A stretch of DNA of 64,000 nucleotides from a virus, in the UHGV virus genome UHGV-0311442, one strand, 5' to 3'. Position numbers and translations under genes: made by a program. Below are positions 4,348 to 20,730 of this stretch, one piece after another. How positions within the stretch are numbered: the stretch's first letter is position 1; every line of letters starts with the position of its first letter. Under the pieces are notes generated by a model. The model was given only the letters and a program-made list of their open reading frames with translations. It made no database searches and had not been told where the DNA came from.

Positions 4348-7300
4348 ATGGCTAAAAAAGGTAAAGATGATTTCGATGAAATCGATCTTGATAACATGGA
4401 CGACTGGGACGATTTTGATGAGCCCCCTCGTCAACAAGACCAATCGCGTAACCCGGTCATGGACACATTTCGTGCTGCCCGTAAGTCGGCGTTGTCGACT
4501 ATCTGGCCCGAAAACAAACGTGATCAGGTTATTTTAAAAGGGATGCCTAAACCTGCGGCAGAAGCCTACGAAGGCTATCAAAACGTTAAAGCTGCAGGTC
4601 AAGACATTCTGGCCCATACGAAAGACGAGATTGAAAAGACGTCTCGCGTCGTCAAGATGCAAGCGAGACAGTTAGGTCCAACACTGAAACGGTATTTACC
4701 GGAATCCGTAACACGGAAAATCGACAAGTGGGCACGTAACGATCAAATCGACTATGGGAATTACGATCCTAAACAAGCGATGATGGATCGTGAGCTGGAC
4801 AGCGTGTTCTCAGGCGCACCGCAAACAGCGGACCAGCAACGTGAGGCGCAAGAGGGGATGGTTGAAGACCGCTTGCGCGACACGATTAAGGACATGAAGT
4901 CCGACGCACTGTTCCAGACCGTAATCGGTATTGCAAAAGACGTCAACTTAACGACTAGCCTAAGTCGTGGCGTGTTGTTGAATGTTCAGCGTAAGCAGTT
5001 AGAGCTGCAATATCGGACGCTGTTTGCTTTGCAGGATATTGCGAAACTCAAACAAGACGAGTTTGCACGCAACACCCCGGCATTAGAAGCCATCGTTAAG
5101 AACACGGCACTACCCGACTACGCGAAGGAAGAGTTTTCTGAAATTCGTTGGGCTAATGTAAAACGTAAAGCTGCGGAGTGGATGAACCCCTTACACTACG
5201 CAGATAATTTCATTGGCCAGATTCGCGAAAACGCGAAGAAGAAAATCTCGAACATCTTTAGTGATGGTCGTGGGATTCTAGAACAAGTTCTAGGGATGGC
5301 TCAGGAAGATGACTTTGACATGTCGGACAGCTCATCGTTGTCTCCTGACCGTCGTAACACAAACTCGCGCAATAAAGCGGCAGGTTTTGCAGGTGGTTGG
5401 TTAGCAAAACGTCTCCTACAACCACAGATCGAGCGACTTCAGAACTGGACGCGTGGCGAGCTAGAGAAAAACCCAGAAGTCATGAAACGCCTACAGTTGG
5501 CGAAGTATGGCTTTGGAAATTTGTCGTCTATTTCTAACTCGGCAATAGCGGGAGAAACAAGCGGCCCGTTAGCTGATCTGTTTCGACTAATGCACGATTT
5601 GGGGCTAGTTAACCCGCTACGTCGCGAAACGTTAGCATTAGACGATCGCTCTGCGGAATCTCTTTCTGCTGCGGCGAAGTTCGATCGTAAAGCTTACCTT
5701 AGTATCACAGAAGTTATTCCGACGTTACTGTCCGAGATTAACAAATCTATTCGTCGTGGGTATGGCGAACACCACGATCAGGTTTATGACTTGACCACGC
5801 GTGGTATGGTCGATCGTAAGGTTATTGGCAATCGTGTACGTAAGGCCGTTGCTAATGACGATCAGCGCAAACGTTTACAGACGTACATCAACGACACTGT
5901 CGACTTTATCGATAAAGATAAAACGCTTGATAGGAAAACACGTCAAGCGTTAGCGGACTACATCGAGTCTCGTGCCTCAGAAGGGAAAGCGTTCGATGTA
6001 GGGTCTTTATTGAAAGACCCGATGCACATGTATCGTTACATGAACGCAAACGCTGTGGAAGCGATTCAGGGTGTTTTAGAAGCCCGTTCTGCGGAACTGG
6101 TTGGTGGACACCATGAACTGAGTAACGCGATTTCAAACAAAATCGCCGCTATCCAGTCAACGATTCGCGCACGACAGGACACTGTTGATGCTGCGTCTGT
6201 GATTTACGGCGAGAATGCACTTCGTGATTCCGGTATTTTTAAATACGATGCGAAGAAAGACATTTTCGAGGTCGATAAGGACATTAACGATCCCTATACG
6301 TTATTTAATGACCTGTCGATGGGTAAGACCCGCTCTGGACGTTCGTTAACCCGTGAGCAAGAGATTCAGCGTAAATTGCAAAACGGTTCTGCGCTGGGTG
6401 ATTACTTGCGACGGATGGGTGCAGGCGCAGAGCCGAGCTTTGAAGACAAAGAACTGTCCAATGTACGTGGCGGTGGAAAAGGAGGTCGTGGTCGCGGTTT
6501 AAGCGCACGCCAACTCGCTGCGGTACTTTATGGAGAGAAATCCACTAACTTTGTTGAACTGTTAAGCAGTCGTCCAGACACGAACGCCGGGTTGGAACAG
6601 CAATTCGACCGTTTGATTGATGCTGTACGTAAACAGCCCGAATCTAGCATCGTGCAAGACATCCTCAAACACGTTAAGAACATGGATGAGGAAGGTATTC
6701 TTCTAGCCAGTTTAGGCGGTAGTCGTGATGACGGTGACGAACCTGAAAGTTCGGGTGAATCAGGCCGTAAACGTCGTCGTAAGCGCAAACGTATTGTACT
6801 AGGCGAGACAGGTTTGTTACGTCGCTGGGCTGGGGTGCTTTGGGATACCGGTTCTGGTGTAGGACGGTTTGGTAAGAATCTGTTCCTACGTGGGAAAGAT
6901 CGCCTACAAGCATTAGGTGGTTTTATTCGTGGGAAATTCTCAGGCGGTTCCTCCGAAGGTCCTGGCGTATTTAGCCGACTGAAAGGGTTAGTAACTGGTA
7001 CATTATCGACGGGTTGGAATTCTGCTGTAGCTTTCGGTAAAGGCGTTTTAGGCGTTCGCGACATCTACGATGAACGTGGTAACGTCGTATTACAAGGAAG
7101 TCGTTTAGAAGCTGGGGAATATTACCAGGCTGACCCGAAAACTGAGAAGCTGATTCAACTTAAAACTCTCGACGATATTAAACTGGGACGTGACATCGTC
7201 GACGAAGCGGGTAATTTAATCTTAGCTGCTGCTGATTTGGCTGCCGCAGGTAAACTGCGTTTCTACAAAGGCGGTAAAGTTCAAGCGCTTTTCCAGTACA

Positions 7301-16297: not shown

Positions 16298-17332
16298 TTA
16301 CACCGCGACAGGCATGGCGATGTGCGGGTGTGATTGGTAACCGACTACTTCAAAGTCCTCGTATTTGTAGTCGAAGATAGATTCGGGTTTACGTTTAATA
16401 ACCAATTTAGGTAACGGGTACGGCTCACGAGTCAGCTGGAGTTTTATTTGATCGAGGTGGTTCAGATATAAATGCACATCGACTCCACTATAAACTAACT
16501 CATCGGGAACCATATTCAATTGTTGGGCAACCATATGAGTTAGCAGAGCGTATGACGCGATGTTGAACGGTTTTCCTAATGCGACATCGTTGCTCCGCAT
16601 CATGTAAAAACATGAAAGCTTACGGCGTGGAATACCTTCACGATCTAAAGTTTCATGAAGACGTTCTTCATCATCAATATCTTCGTGATTAATAAGTGGT
16701 GCGTTCGCAAATTTTTCCGGTTCATTTGCTTCGTACCAATCCAGTCGCTCAAGCAGTGTCATTTCCGTTGTGTAGAATTGGAAATAGTTGTGGCATGGGT
16801 TAAGTGCCATATCGTCCAGGTCACCTACATTCCAGGCACTAACAATAATACGTCGGGAGTCAGGGTCTTCACGAAGTTGCTGGATAACTTTGCTGATCTG
16901 GTCATGTGCTTTCTCATAGACCAAATACGTCGTACCATCTTCCTTCATATTCCCAATATACTTGTAACCCCGCTGCATTAGTTGTTGTGTACGTCTTACG
17001 TCATGACACTCCACAACTTTACAGTCACGCCATTCGCGCCACTGTTTACCATAAACTGGTCCTAAGTTCCCCTCTTCGTCACTCCATTCGTTCCAAATTT
17101 TTACCCCGTTCTCTTGCAGGTACTTCACGTTAGTGTCACCATTTAAGAACCACAGCAGTTCATGAATGATACTTTTCAGGTGAACCTTTTTCGTAGTAAC
17201 TAATGGGAAACCTTCTTTTAGGTCGAAACGTAGTTGGCGACCAAATACAGAAAGTGTCCCTACGCCTGTACGGTCTTTCTTGACAACACCGTTATCCAGA
17301 ATGTCTTGCATTAATGCTAAATACTGTTTCAT
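16298..17332 (-). CDS. thyA: Thymidylate synthase (ThyA type) with two in-frame insertions
   Basis: 344 aa aligning along its length with enterobacterial ThyA: [42 protein letters not shown], active-site [29 protein letters not shown]. About 80 extra residues in two insertions. Confidence 0.9.
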
Positions 17333-17640
17333 TAGATTTTGTCCTTTTCGAGTTCAGTTAAAATTTCAAACAGGTCTGCGTTGGATTGCAGTACGATTTC
17401 ACTGCCTTCTGCTACAACGGTAATTGAAGGCTTCTTACCACGTAGTAAGAACTCCCAACGCATTGTTCTTACGTGGCTGTCAAGTAACTGTTTTAATTTG
17501 TGGTTAACTTCAACTTCCAATTTGCCCAGTAACTGTGGTGTAATGCTTTCACCTGAGTTTTTGTTATAAAGTGTACGCACTAAAGAACGTAAAGAATAGC
17601 CAATGCACTGCGAAATTGCCCAACCCGAATAGTTTTCCAT
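17332..17640 (-). CDS. Hypothetical protein (102 aa)
   Basis: ORF with ATG start; its stop overlaps the thyA start. Confidence 0.45.
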
Positions 17641-17641
17641 G

Positions 17642-18187
17642 TTAATCCTTCAAAATGTCTTTAAGTTTTAGTTTTGTATAGAACGGAGAACTACTTAGTT
17701 CTTCTGTCCAACTTATACGTCCGTTCTGTAGAACCCGGTCGAAGATTAGGCCGTTCATCTTTACAATTCTGGCCAATTGATAAAAGAGCGTCGCGAGATG
17801 TAGACGCCGCTCCATTTGTGCGCGAGCGGTACAACTTCGTACCGCTTTGATAGCAAGTACCGCTTCTGGCATCAACGTAACCGCGATTGACTCAGGATGT
17901 TCGTTTTTCCATTTCTTAATGGCTAGTAGTCGGTGTAGCGATTTTTCAAGGGGACGTAAATCCCCGTTATTCATCACGTAAACTAGAGCAGCAATATCCC
18001 ACAAGGCGATACCCACCGCTTTAGCAACAAACAACCCGTCGTGTGTTGTCGTGGACTCACAGACTTTGCCAATACTTCCATAAACACGTGCAGTCCATGC
18101 GTCTGTCTGTTCGCCAGGTTTTATACCCGCGTTATCCAGAAAGTGTTTAAATGCATTAACGTGATCAGTTAACTGTATTTGTTTCAT
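17642..18187 (-). CDS. Hypothetical protein (181 aa)
   Basis: ORF with ATG start, tightly packed with neighbours. Confidence 0.5.
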   Translation of the reverse strand: MKQIQLTDHVNAFKHFLDNAGIKPGEQTDAWTARVYGSIGKVCESTTTHDGLFVAKAVGIALWDIAALVYVMNNGDLRPLEKSLHRLLAIKKWKNEHPESIAVTLMPEAVLAIKAVRSCTARAQMERRLHLATLFYQLARIVKMNGLIFDRVLQNGRISWTEELSSSPFYTKLKLKDILKD

Positions 18188-18201
18188 TTCCGATACCCGA
18201 T

Positions 18202-18750
18202 TTAGTCACGAGACTTTATTTTAAGGTACGCAACCGCAGCTCCCATGATTGCAATACCGGCACCCCAACCTATCTTTTCTACTACAGTCAAATCAGACCA
18301 TTTCTTCTCTTCCGTAGTAGACGAGTCAGTATTCGCTGAGAAGGCTTGTGCCCTCATGCGTTCCGTCTCAACATTGTTACGTTCGGCTTCGTCTTCTACC
18401 TGTTTCAACAACGCTTCGCGGTTTAGGTACTTGGCGTTTATCTCCGCAGCTCTGGCATTCATTTCCGCAGCCTTTTGACGTTTCCGTTCTTCAATTTTCC
18501 TAATCAGATCTTCTAAATAGAGCCTCGTTTCTTCCACAGCCTGCTCATAGACGTCTATGCGATCGGGAAGAACTCTCCTGTGGTTGGATTTGTTGCGAAC
18601 GGAGGCAATCATGTGGAGTTTCCGTTCGTATTTTGGTTCGAGAAGATAGGCTATGCTTTTGGTCTTCTCATGAAGTCCGCGACCAGTACCGCCGAGTTTT
18701 TCCACAAGTTCTTCTACAGAAATTGCAAGATCGAGAATATATCCACGCAT
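18202..18750 (-). CDS. HEPN-like protein with coiled-coil and C-terminal transmembrane anchor
   Basis: Start refined to ATG at 18748-18750 (GGAGA upstream; track start is a non-ATG codon at 18801). R-x4-H motif in ASVRNKSNHRR, charged coiled-coil region, C-terminal hydrophobic segment GWGAGIAIMGAAVAYL. Confidence 0.4.
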   Translation of the reverse strand: MRGYILDLAISVEELVEKLGGTGRGLHEKTKSIAYLLEPKYERKLHMIASVRNKSNHRRVLPDRIDVYEQAVEETRLYLEDLIRKIEERKRQKAAEMNARAAEINAKYLNREALLKQVEDEAERNNVETERMRAQAFSANTDSSTTEEKKWSDLTVVEKIGWGAGIAIMGAAVAYLKIKSRD

Positions 18751-18810
18751 AATTGTTTCTCCGCTTAAACGTAGTCTTGGGAGACATAAGTCTGTTCCCA
18801 ACTGTAAAAA

Positions 18811-19164
18811 TCATTTCAACAAAACAAGATGAATTTGGTATTCGTCATCCGCAGGAGAAGAATAATCGCCGGTTTCAGGAAACGATAAATCCCCTAGTAG
18901 ACTGTGGAAGGATAATCCGTGTACAGCTTCAACTTTTCGTACAAGCGGAAAACCTGTTCTTTTAATCCAATTGTAATCGACAAACAAAACACCACCAGGA
19001 CTTCCCGAGCCTGACCATACGCGAATATCCACAGTCTTTCCTGAGAAGTTGGCAAGAACGGTGCGTAGTTTTAATAGCACACCGCGTGTGAGGGGTACTT
19101 CAATAACAGATTCAGGGAATCTAAAACCGAATCCGTTGGGAGTATTAAAGAACTGAGCTTGCAT
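18811..19164 (-). CDS. Hypothetical protein (117 aa)
   Basis: ATG with AAGGAG upstream. Confidence 0.5.
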   Translation of the reverse strand: MQAQFFNTPNGFGFRFPESVIEVPLTRGVLLKLRTVLANFSGKTVDIRVWSGSGSPGGVLFVDYNWIKRTGFPLVRKVEAVHGLSFHSLLGDLSFPETGDYSSPADDEYQIHLVLLK

Positions 19165-19180
19165 GGTAAATTCTCCTTTA

Positions 19181-19222
19181 GGGTAAAAAATGAAAATACC
19201 CTACTCCTGTCTAGGAGTAGGG
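19181..19222 (-). terminator. Rho-independent terminator (minus strand)
   Basis: Stem CCCTACTCC/GGAGTAGGG, loop TGTCTA, at 19199-19222; A-rich run on the plus strand just upstream. Confidence 0.65.
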
Positions 19223-19228
19223 TAGGTG

Positions 19229-19888
19229 TTACATACGGGTAACTGAATCCCAGTAATCGCGAAGATATTCTTGATCCTCAGGATCTTTCGGTGTAGCCGG
19301 AATGTGGCCGTCAAACTCAAACGGAATTACAGACAGAACATCCGCAATCTCGTAACGCTCGACTTCCAGTTCAACTTTCACCCAGTCACCGACGCTGGTA
19401 CTACTACGCATCTCGGTGAGGAGATCGTTAAAGTCACCCGAAACTTCAATTGCGGGGTGTCCGGTGGTGATACTGAAAATATCAATATCCCAATGCTTAG
19501 CACCTTTATCGGCTAATTCGCCCGGTTCTAAGTGGATACGCTTCACCAGGTGCGCCAAATAACCGTCCTTGTAAAAAGAGAGTGCAGAACTAATACCGAT
19601 ATCCGAATTCTCTTCAACCTTTCCGTCCAGGAATTTACGCTTAAGCGTTAGCTGTGCTGTACCGTCTTCTTTAATACGGATACGGCGACGCCCGCCTTCT
19701 ATCGGCATGAGGATGTCCATGAACATCTTAGTGGACTGTGCGTGTAGCCAATCCCATCCCGCTTGCGTAGGTTTAACCCAGACGCAATATTCCTTTTCCA
19801 CTTCGCGTTTAATGGATTCGCCCGCAACGCGAATAACCTCTTCTTCCTGCGCTTTTTCCAATTGCGCAAGGGTATCGAATAATCCCAT
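19229..19888 (-). CDS. CYTH-like (triphosphate tunnel metalloenzyme) domain protein
   Basis: 219 aa; N-terminal REVEKEY (ExExK-aromatic), then GGRRRIRIKEDG (RxR) and AQLTLKRK, the usual CYTH motif order. Confidence 0.4.
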   Translation of the reverse strand: MGLFDTLAQLEKAQEEEVIRVAGESIKREVEKEYCVWVKPTQAGWDWLHAQSTKMFMDILMPIEGGRRRIRIKEDGTAQLTLKRKFLDGKVEENSDIGISSALSFYKDGYLAHLVKRIHLEPGELADKGAKHWDIDIFSITTGHPAIEVSGDFNDLLTEMRSSTSVGDWVKVELEVERYEIADVLSVIPFEFDGHIPATPKDPEDQEYLRDYWDSVTRM

Positions 19889-20730
19889 TAGATTAATCCC
19901 ATACTTTCACTGACGCTCGTAATGTCGAACGTTGTGTCGTTAAAGTCGATGTTTTCTACAATAGAAACCACCAGATTAGGAAGCCATTCCGAATGGGGTG
20001 GTGTAATAACCCGGCCGTTCATAACGTAGTAATGCAAGAACGGTAATCCCATCGAATGGCAGTACGATAACACATTACCTAAGCAGCTTCCGTCAAACTT
20101 CAAGAGTCGGAGCTTACGCAATAATGCGTTTTGAAATGCACCGTTCGCGTAATTGCTAAACTCGCCAGGCCGATAATCCGTGCCCCCGTAGATACTCGCC
20201 TTTAATCGACGACCGTGTTGTATACATTCAGCCCCAGTCAGGGTGCGTAATAAACGGATGTCAGGATATTCAGTTTCCAAACGACCCAACGCGTTTATTC
20301 CGTAGCCCTTGTAGAACAGATAGTCTACGATCCTTAAATAATGATAGTAGCCTTCTAACGTTAAAAACTGACCATGTATCGTGTCGAATTTCGCACCGTT
20401 AGGTTGCGCGTAGAAGTTACTGATCATTTTCCCTACGGTAGTACGACCGTTAGAGTAAAGGTTAAGATGGTTGATACCATCGGTAAAAGGGAGTTTTTCG
20501 GGTAACGCACAAACGTAGCCTAAACGACGAAGGTATAGGACATAAACAAAGCGCTCATCAGGAGTAAGCACGATGTTTGACGCGTTAACGTATCCATTAG
20601 GATTATTTCGCCCAGGTTGATAACCCAGCGTTAATGCCAGAGCGTGATTGTCTTCGCCCTGACTTTTGATCTTCTTTAATACGGAACGCAGTAATTGTGG
20701 TTCGGACATAACCGGCCTCTTAAATAGCAA
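19888..20730 (-). CDS. Hypothetical protein (about 270-280 aa)
   Basis: ORF in the minus-strand block; true start may be an internal Met. Confidence 0.5.
   Translation of the reverse strand: MLFKRPVMSEPQLLRSVLKKIKSQGEDNHALALTLGYQPGRNNPNGYVNASNIVLTPDERFVYVLYLRRLGYVCALPEKLPFTDGINHLNLYSNGRTTVGKMISNFYAQPNGAKFDTIHGQFLTLEGYYHYLRIVDYLFYKGYGINALGRLETEYPDIRLLRTLTGAECIQHGRRLKASIYGGTDYRPGEFSNYANGAFQNALLRKLRLLKFDGSCLGNVLSYCHSMGLPFLHYYVMNGRVITPPHSEWLPNLVVSIVENIDFNDTTFDITSVSESMGLI

Follow-up and report, generated by a model that had tools for sequence, protein, structure and literature searches.

What would a virulent-type jumbo phage do with a small protein that carries a HEPN-like motif and ends in a hydrophobic helix? 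The question is raised by positions 18202-18750 of a 64,000-nucleotide stretch of UHGV virus genome UHGV-0311442, which we call the window. A sequence-only reading of this gene had seen a HEPN-type R-x4-H motif, a charged coiled-coil region and a C-terminal membrane anchor, and had suggested host RNA cleavage, a toxin module or exclusion as possible uses. We found that the assignment to HEPN is supported by conservation, by the predicted fold and by a large family of distant relatives. We propose that the protein is a tail-anchored, inner-membrane protein resembling HEPN ribonucleases (RNases), which would face the cytoplasm, dimerise and act in host takeover or in the exclusion of rival phages. 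In our estimate this reading has a probability of roughly 55%.

The gene and its protein

The gene is a minus-strand open reading frame (ORF) of 182 amino acids that spans exactly 18202-18750, with its ATG at 18750-18748 and a TAA stop at 18204-18202. A GGAG ribosome-binding site lies 8 nt 5' of the ATG. A longer form that begins with TTG at 18801 is present only in a mechanical ORF list. We take the ATG at 18750 as the start because all 52 orthologues found in a collection of 5.8 billion proteins begin with MRGYIL or MRTYIL. These orthologues are 154-191 amino acids long, apart from one divergent variant of 136 amino acids, and many of them lie on contigs of 221-226 kb, some of which carry a Salmonella or Shigella label. 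Their length differences are all in frame and all in the middle of the protein. The locus is a real, maintained protein-coding gene, and the short plus-strand ORFs inside it have no support. Its features are as follows.

18202..18750, minus strand: complete gene, 182 amino acids, with a HEPN domain, a charged helical stalk and a C-terminal membrane anchor (predicted; from the ORF and 52 orthologues)
18759..18762, minus strand: GGAG ribosome-binding site (read from the sequence)
18490..18750, minus strand: N-terminal HEPN-fold domain, residues 1-87, with helices 2-18, 26-32, 39-57 and 65-89
18580..18597, minus strand: R52-N53-K54-S55-N56-H57, the R-x4-H motif closing helix 3 (R, N and H invariant in three alignments)
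18664..18693, minus strand: conserved loop and helix 2, G20-G-T-G-R-G-L-H-E-K29, with the signature GxxGxGLHEK (61 distant relatives)
18301..18489, minus strand: charged, Ala-rich helical stalk, residues 88-150, of variable length among orthologues (AlphaFold, composition)
18432..18471, no strand assigned: 21-bp tandem duplication, AAEMNAR/AAEINAK (Tandem Repeats Finder)
18217..18273, minus strand: Gly/Ala-rich hydrophobic C-terminal helix, residues 160-178, a predicted tail anchor, with the basic tail KSRD after it (hydropathy, conservation)

The R-x4-H motif and the HEPN fold

The segment ASVRNKSNHRR, from which the HEPN assignment started, is present at residues 49-59. The motif on its own is weak evidence, since R-x4-H arises in 25% of shuffles of the 182-residue protein (17 R, 3 H); the stricter RNxxxH arises in 1.3%. 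Conservation takes it beyond chance: neither the phage clade nor two sets of distant relatives (61 and 64 sequences, approximately 30% identity to the phage protein) show any change at R52, N53 or H57.

The predicted structure places these residues where a HEPN domain should have them. With the orthologue alignment as input, AlphaFold models the N-terminal domain at a predicted local distance difference test score (pLDDT) of about 90, and only the last 40 residues have low confidence. With the 61 distant relatives aligned instead, residues 1-90 reach a pLDDT of 96.2 and a predicted template modelling score of 0.86, and they form the four-helix up-and-down bundle of HEPN domains. By the definition of the superfamily, an up-and-down bundle of four helices, often with a short insert between helices 2 and 3, has its R-x4-6-H motif where helix 3 ends or the loop to helix 4 starts, and the arginine is followed by a polar residue (N/D/H) (PMC3710099). 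Here, helix 3 (residues 39-57) ends with R52-N53-K-S-N-H57. HEPN domains also have a second conserved acidic residue in helix 2, usually as E-x3-[KR]. E28 lies in helix 2 within the conserved GLHEK; the residue at position +4 from it is S32, not K/R, and the invariant acidic residue is E13 in helix 1.

HEPN proteins head both of two independent fold searches. In the Foldseek search against the PDB, members of the superfamily occupy places 1-22, with probabilities up to 0.99 and E-values of 0.1 or higher. Most of them are HepT toxins (for example, PDB 5yep, 6m6u, 7ae2 and 8xdj), the best structural matches, which have R-x4-H at the same position in the fold. HepS, Csm6 and AbiA are among the lower-ranked matches of one search. 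Profile searches against PDB sequences gave nothing significant: the best match of the clade profile is a spurious one to Trio (E 0.25), and that of the family profile is HepS, aligned on its IRNKYAH segment (E 0.44).

A family of small HEPN proteins, mostly with predicted membrane anchors

We searched 1.84 billion representative proteins with a profile of the N-terminal domain (E<=1e-3) and found 250 relatives. In the set of 61, E13, G23, R52, N53 and H57 are invariant, and L16, G20, G25, H27, S32 and A49 are each kept in at least 90% of the sequences; the second set (n=64) gives the same picture. The family signature can be written GxxGxGLHEK...IAxxRNKxxHE. Among the first 149 matches, 146 have R-x4-H with a polar residue after the arginine, nearly all as RNxxxH and at around position 55.

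As to the name of the family, weak matches to DUF4145 (PF13643) were obtained for 13/64 and 17/64 relatives (30/128 in all) at E<=0.01, the best at 5.5e-7, and two members are called 'DUF4145 domain-containing protein' by NCBI. A few relatives match HEPN_Apea, HEPN_RiboL-PSP or HEPN_Swt1, and no unrelated Pfam family recurs. The phage protein itself does not match PF13643 at the curated threshold, or even at E<=10. For this reason we do not file it under that family; we class it in the HEPN superfamily, as a member of a neighbouring, DUF4145-like family.

The architecture of the relatives was surveyed in 245 motif-bearing sequences outside the phage clade, 185 of which have at least one predicted transmembrane segment. 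The commonest arrangement, found in 122, is a single predicted transmembrane helix no more than 15 residues from the C-terminus, in proteins with a median length of 123 amino acids and a median of 40 residues from motif to helix. One helix with more sequence after it occurs in 36, two or more helices occur in 27, and 60 have none. The tails of the tail-anchored relatives usually end in basic residues, like that of the phage protein. In some relatives, CxxC pairs or matches to zinc-ribbon models come after the transmembrane segments. Several relatives (P0053, P0056, P0057, P0088 and P0093) carry two HEPN copies in one chain, as is expected if the domain acts as a dimer; P0053 is a close relative of the phage protein.

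Membrane-associated HEPN domains as such are not new. Three groups of them were predicted computationally by Anantharaman et al. in 2013 (Biol Direct 8:15, PMC3710099), and one group, with an example from Planctomyces, has an N-terminal HEPN domain, two transmembrane helices and a C-terminal Zn-ribbon (PMC3710099). The present family resembles that group in having an N-terminal, predicted cytoplasmic HEPN domain before its membrane helices, in being centred on Planctomycetota, and in including relatives with several transmembrane segments and CxxC pairs or zinc-ribbon matches. The phage protein differs from it: it has a single C-terminal anchor with a tail of six residues and no Zn-ribbon, and it is encoded by a virulent-type jumbo phage. 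It also differs from the typical 123-residue bacterial members, which lack its charged stalk of about 60 residues.

We then scanned one genome per species with a profile from the alignment of 64 relatives and found 117 loci. Planctomycetota account for most of them (Gemmataceae, Phycisphaerae, Thermoguttaceae and Brocadiaceae); the others are scattered over Ferrimonas, Vibrio, Acinetobacter, Moraxellaceae, Thioalkalivibrio, Verrucomicrobiota and other groups. The genes of the family stand alone, and a multi-gene system is rejected: in an all-against-all BLAST of neighbours, with crude, greedy longest-ORF calling, no neighbour family is common to more than 6 of 77 bacterial loci, and the largest neighbour cluster consists of six loci of close relatives. 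Some of the proteobacterial copies are in mobile elements. One is in an accessory cluster between the tail and portal genes of a Pseudomonas prophage, one adjoins coupling-protein and relaxase-like genes in a conjugative element, and one lies in a prophage, between lysis-like genes and an integrase. Other relatives lie amid ordinary chromosomal genes.

Two features of the chromosomal surroundings were also seen. Ferritin/Dps-like genes are one or two genes away from homologues in Vibrio, Thermoguttaceae and several Gemmataceae/Planctomycetia loci (L006, L007, L019, L022, L023 and L040), and one Thermoguttaceae locus also includes MoxR, on the upstream side, and, two genes downstream, the RNA ligase RtcB. 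These neighbours may point to a link with stress or RNA repair, or may reflect local synteny only.

The charged stalk and the C-terminal helix

The region after the HEPN domain had been described as a charged coiled coil. It is indeed charged (42% D/E/K/R over residues 85-150), and AlphaFold models a single continuous helix over residues 65-141. Heptad analysis gives an a/d occupancy of 69% when alanine is counted (p ~0.03) and no significance for strong hydrophobic residues (p ~0.19). A coiled coil is thus weakly supported and not established, and the stalk could equally be a single, stable charged helix. A tandem duplication with a period of 21 and 1.9 copies (18432-18471) lies within the stalk. 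Several orthologues of 175 amino acids lack exactly seven residues within or adjoining this repeat, and slippage there may help to set the stalk length.

The C-terminal helix, I160-L176, reads IGWGAGIAIMGAAVAYL, and KIKSRD comes after it. Averaged over 19 residues, its Kyte-Doolittle hydropathy peaks at 1.54 (residues 160-178), against a classical cut-off of 1.6; the 122 tail-anchored relatives have the same layout with stronger helices. The proposal of a membrane anchor is supported in that the helix is nearly invariant within the clade, where I160, G163, G165, I166, A167, I168 and A172 do not change, and matches the commonest architecture of the family. It is rich in Gly and Ala, with small-xxx-small spacing. 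We therefore predict that the phage protein is the standard tail-anchored form of its family, with an unusually long stalk (about 100 residues from motif to helix). The absence of a signal peptide and the highly charged stalk suggest that the HEPN domain faces the cytoplasm.

Two variants of the gene deserve mention. P0051 (locus L002, 6001-6411) is identical to P0001-type (MRTYILE) variants over residues 1-49 and then diverges sharply, keeping the motif, a short linker and the anchor, which is nearly invariant even here; this pattern suggests recombination inside the gene. P0055 (86 amino acids) joins the first 43 residues of the phage protein to a plus-strand translation of the downstream gene region (approximately 18000-18080), and is either a local inversion/deletion in one genome or an assembly artefact.

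The gene in its phage genome

The window is part of a jumbo phage. Its genes include those for a UvsX-like recombinase, for proteins resembling SbcC and RNase H, for large virion proteins and for a multisubunit RNA polymerase beta subunit in split form. A protein of 2388 amino acids contains a transglycosylase domain, and the PHROG that it matches has the annotation tail fiber. A megablast search with the 3-kb region around the gene found no match in 50,697 GenBank phage records. At the protein level, the neighbouring 219-residue protein (19229-19888) has 57-59% identity to proteins of Salmonella phage SPN3US and of the Erwinia phages Asesino and phiEaH2, and the gene order matches SPN3US gp218-gp234. 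These relatives are nucleus-forming (chimallivirus-type) phages.

The gene of interest lies between homologues of SPN3US gp225 (19229-19888) and gp228 (17642-18187 and 17332-17640), the latter being followed by thymidylate synthase. SPN3US gp226 and gp227 (SPN3US locus 5719-6552) show no similarity to the two window genes at 18202-19164, so this interval is a variable two-gene slot between conserved genes. We looked to synteny with SPN3US for a function, and it gives no clue, as the positional equivalents gp226 and gp227 are not homologous. The slot and its border contain two further features.

18811..19164, minus strand: gene of 117 amino acids, without a Pfam or PHROG match, upstream of the HEPN-anchor gene in the same variable two-gene slot
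19197..19224, minus strand: terminator-like hairpin, 12-bp stem plus T-run, between the gp225-like gene and the unit with the HEPN gene (consensus scan only)

The stem of the hairpin includes six G-C pairs and is followed by TTTTCATTTT; the 117-residue gene starts about 33 nt further on. The hairpin suggests that the gp225-like gene is transcribed separately from a unit containing the HEPN gene and thymidylate synthase, and the genes downstream of the slot are tightly packed. A scan for sigma-70-like promoters found none, and no Rfam family was found in 17000-20000. Apart from thymidylate synthase, the surrounding genes are of unknown function; they include no endolysin or spanin gene, as would be expected next to a holin in a lysis cassette.

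Three side observations concern this region and its phages. The gp228 homologue (289 amino acids in SPN3US, phrog_10269) is represented here by two adjacent ORFs, of 181 and 102 amino acids, which correspond to the N- and C-terminal parts of the profile; a sequencing error is not the cause, because the related contig L002 has the same split. Thymidylate synthase (16298-17332, minus strand) has 344 amino acids over about 275 positions of the phrog_160 profile, which implies an insertion of about 60-70 residues (acidic segment at about 190-240); the SPN3US enzyme is similarly long. Assemblies that bear the labels Salmonella enterica (several serovars), Shigella flexneri or Shigella sonnei contain near-identical contigs of 221-226 kb. 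These contigs look like an undescribed group of SPN3US-like jumbo phages travelling with bacterial isolates, through a carrier state or contamination.

The sequence-only reading had called such a protein unusual for a lytic phage, and the searches agree. The phage protein has no tblastn match in the same 50,697 phage records, no match in PHROGs, and no Foldseek match below E = 1 among the viral structures of BFVD. Outside the clade, IMG/VR yielded only three contigs, and the two that were inspected (L013 and L015) are prophage-like. The family is almost absent from known phages outside this clade.

Proposed role and alternative explanations

In the mechanism that we propose, the N-terminal 87 residues would be a small DUF4145-like HEPN domain, held near the cytoplasmic face of the inner membrane by a single C-terminal membrane helix, with a charged helix of some 55 residues in between (straight, it would measure about 8 nm). 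Two domains would pair, helped by the stalk and by the small-residue face of the membrane helix, and R52, N53 and H57, with E13, H27 and E28 nearby, would form a metal-independent RNase site. RNA cut near the membrane could then lead to a shutdown of host translation, or to the exclusion of phages whose RNA appears at the cell periphery. The phage's own transcripts would presumably be made in a central phage nucleus, as in its SPN3US-like relatives.

RNase activity is suggested by the strict conservation of R, N and H (with E13 and H27/E28) and by the precedent of RAZR (PD-T7-4), an antiphage DUF4145 RNase (Nature 2026, PMC13017515). The DUF4145 domain of RAZR is active on single-stranded RNA and needs its Arg and His, and HEPN enzymes generally act as dimers (PMC13017515). 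RAZR differs from the phage protein in having an N-terminal zinc finger, in being soluble, and in being activated as it assembles around phage portal rings. HepS, a HEPN protein of the Gifsy-1 prophage (PDB 9oij/9oik), is likewise soluble, and its PDB title has it binding the lambda J tail tip.

Several points weigh against this proposal. That the family has RNase activity is extrapolated. An RNase that stands alone and lacks regulation would be expected to be toxic, yet the 77 loci show no conserved partner gene. The Foldseek E-values against the PDB are modest, and no curated model fits the phage protein (there was no usable match in Pfam at E<=10, PHROGs, PADLOC or NCBIfam). The hydropathy of the anchor is marginal, and its basic tail breaks the positive-inside rule for an N-in/C-out anchor. 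The Planctomycetota copies look like ordinary chromosomal genes, which weakens the case for exclusion. As to the tail, known tail-anchored proteins of E. coli likewise end in basic residues.

The analysis establishes the gene, its predicted fold, its place in the family, the conservation of the catalytic-type residues and how common membrane anchors are among the relatives. We infer membrane insertion and topology, dimerisation, RNase activity, substrate and biological role, and the role is the weakest step: it may be host shutoff, competitor exclusion or a narrow counter-defence activity. A role in conflict would fit the variable slot and the copies of relatives in mobile elements. A housekeeping membrane RNase borrowed by the phage would fit the chromosomal, apparently vertically inherited copies of Planctomycetota.

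The alternative that survives best, itself unlikely, is a HEPN protein that does not degrade RNA broadly or that serves counter-defence. It might bind RNA, poison a host HEPN enzyme through mixed dimers, or act at the membrane by cleaving one particular small target, either a tRNA or a cyclic oligonucleotide whose signal activates membrane effectors. Non-catalytic binders and nucleases of high specificity are numerous among HEPN domains (PMC3710099), and the absence of a conserved inhibitor gene is easier to explain if the activity is narrow. The RtcB gene near one Thermoguttaceae homologue would also suit it; this link is confined to one lineage and is not conserved. Against this reading, the full catalytic-type motif is conserved, and no specific target can be inferred.

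Next comes a pore like that of Csx28 from type VI-B2 CRISPR-Cas, which we regard as improbable and still as a serious alternative, because Csx28 is likewise a small, HEPN-like, one-helix protein that acts other than as a nuclease. It has a four-helix HEPN-like domain and one transmembrane helix, and its octameric pore depolarises the membrane without nuclease activity (bioRxiv 10.1101/2021.11.02.466367). The phage protein would accordingly have a non-cutting domain and form a ring that depolarises or permeabilises the inner membrane, for example, for lysis timing, host metabolic arrest or aborting rival infections. Its near-invariant Gly/Ala-rich anchor, with small-xxx-small spacing, fits helix-helix packing. 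Csx28, however, has its anchor at the N-terminus, a divergent motif and a face-to-back octamer, and depends on Cas13b. The phage family has the anchor at the opposite end, a canonical and invariant motif, a variable stalk and relatives without any transmembrane segment; there is no cas gene among the neighbouring genes examined, and Csx28 is not among the fold matches listed.

It is quite improbable that the protein is the toxin in a toxin-antitoxin or addiction pair whose second gene, the neighbour of 117 codons (18811-19164), would encode its inhibitor. HepT toxins are among the fold matches, the two genes together fill the slot that holds two unrelated genes in SPN3US, and both come directly after the terminator-like hairpin. 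However, HepT proteins share 8-18% sequence identity with the phage protein and have no membrane anchor, and the neighbours include no nucleotidyltransferase (MNT) antitoxin of the HEPN-MNT type and have no Pfam domain of another kind. In locus L005, the homologue is preceded by a gene whose product is unrelated to the 117-residue protein, and the frequency of neighbour families given above (at most 6/77 bacterial loci) also speaks against a conserved pair. Finally, a chance motif in an ordinary small helical membrane protein is essentially excluded by conservation and fold, as the motif residues are invariant across relatives, HEPN leads two independent fold searches, and relatives match three HEPN Pfam models.

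Significance

HEPN RNases such as Cas13, Csm6, RnlA, PrrC, RAZR and HepS (a tRNA nuclease) are central to bacterial immunity and are usually weapons of the host or of prophages. Here, a HEPN protein is carried by a virulent-type jumbo phage and is, by prediction, tied to the membrane. The general kind, membrane-associated HEPN, was already predicted in 2013; the specific family has no name, and what is new is its carriage, in a form with a long stalk, by a virulent-type jumbo phage. At 50% identity, the family comprises no fewer than 250 clusters of small HEPN proteins, most of them predicted to be tail-anchored, which the models of Pfam, PHROG, PADLOC and NCBIfam mostly miss.

If the protein is inactive or ordinary, the gain is only a better annotation of a hypothetical protein. 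If it is active, it would be a simple 182-residue model for what membrane tethering does for an RNase, and a candidate for a role in host shutoff or in conflict between phages, among the nucleus-forming phages, whose exposed molecule is RNA. A more specific version of the mechanism, which is a long shot, has the RNase patrolling along the inside of the cell membrane, on a rigid stalk about 8 nm long, and destroying peripheral RNAs, while the transcription of the resident phage is sheltered in its central nucleus. Its targets could be host mRNAs for membrane proteins or the first transcripts of superinfecting phages, including those from the membrane-derived early-infection vesicles of rival nucleus-forming phages. 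If true, this would be spatially organised RNA warfare between phages, and would give a first function to a large family of tail-anchored HEPN proteins.
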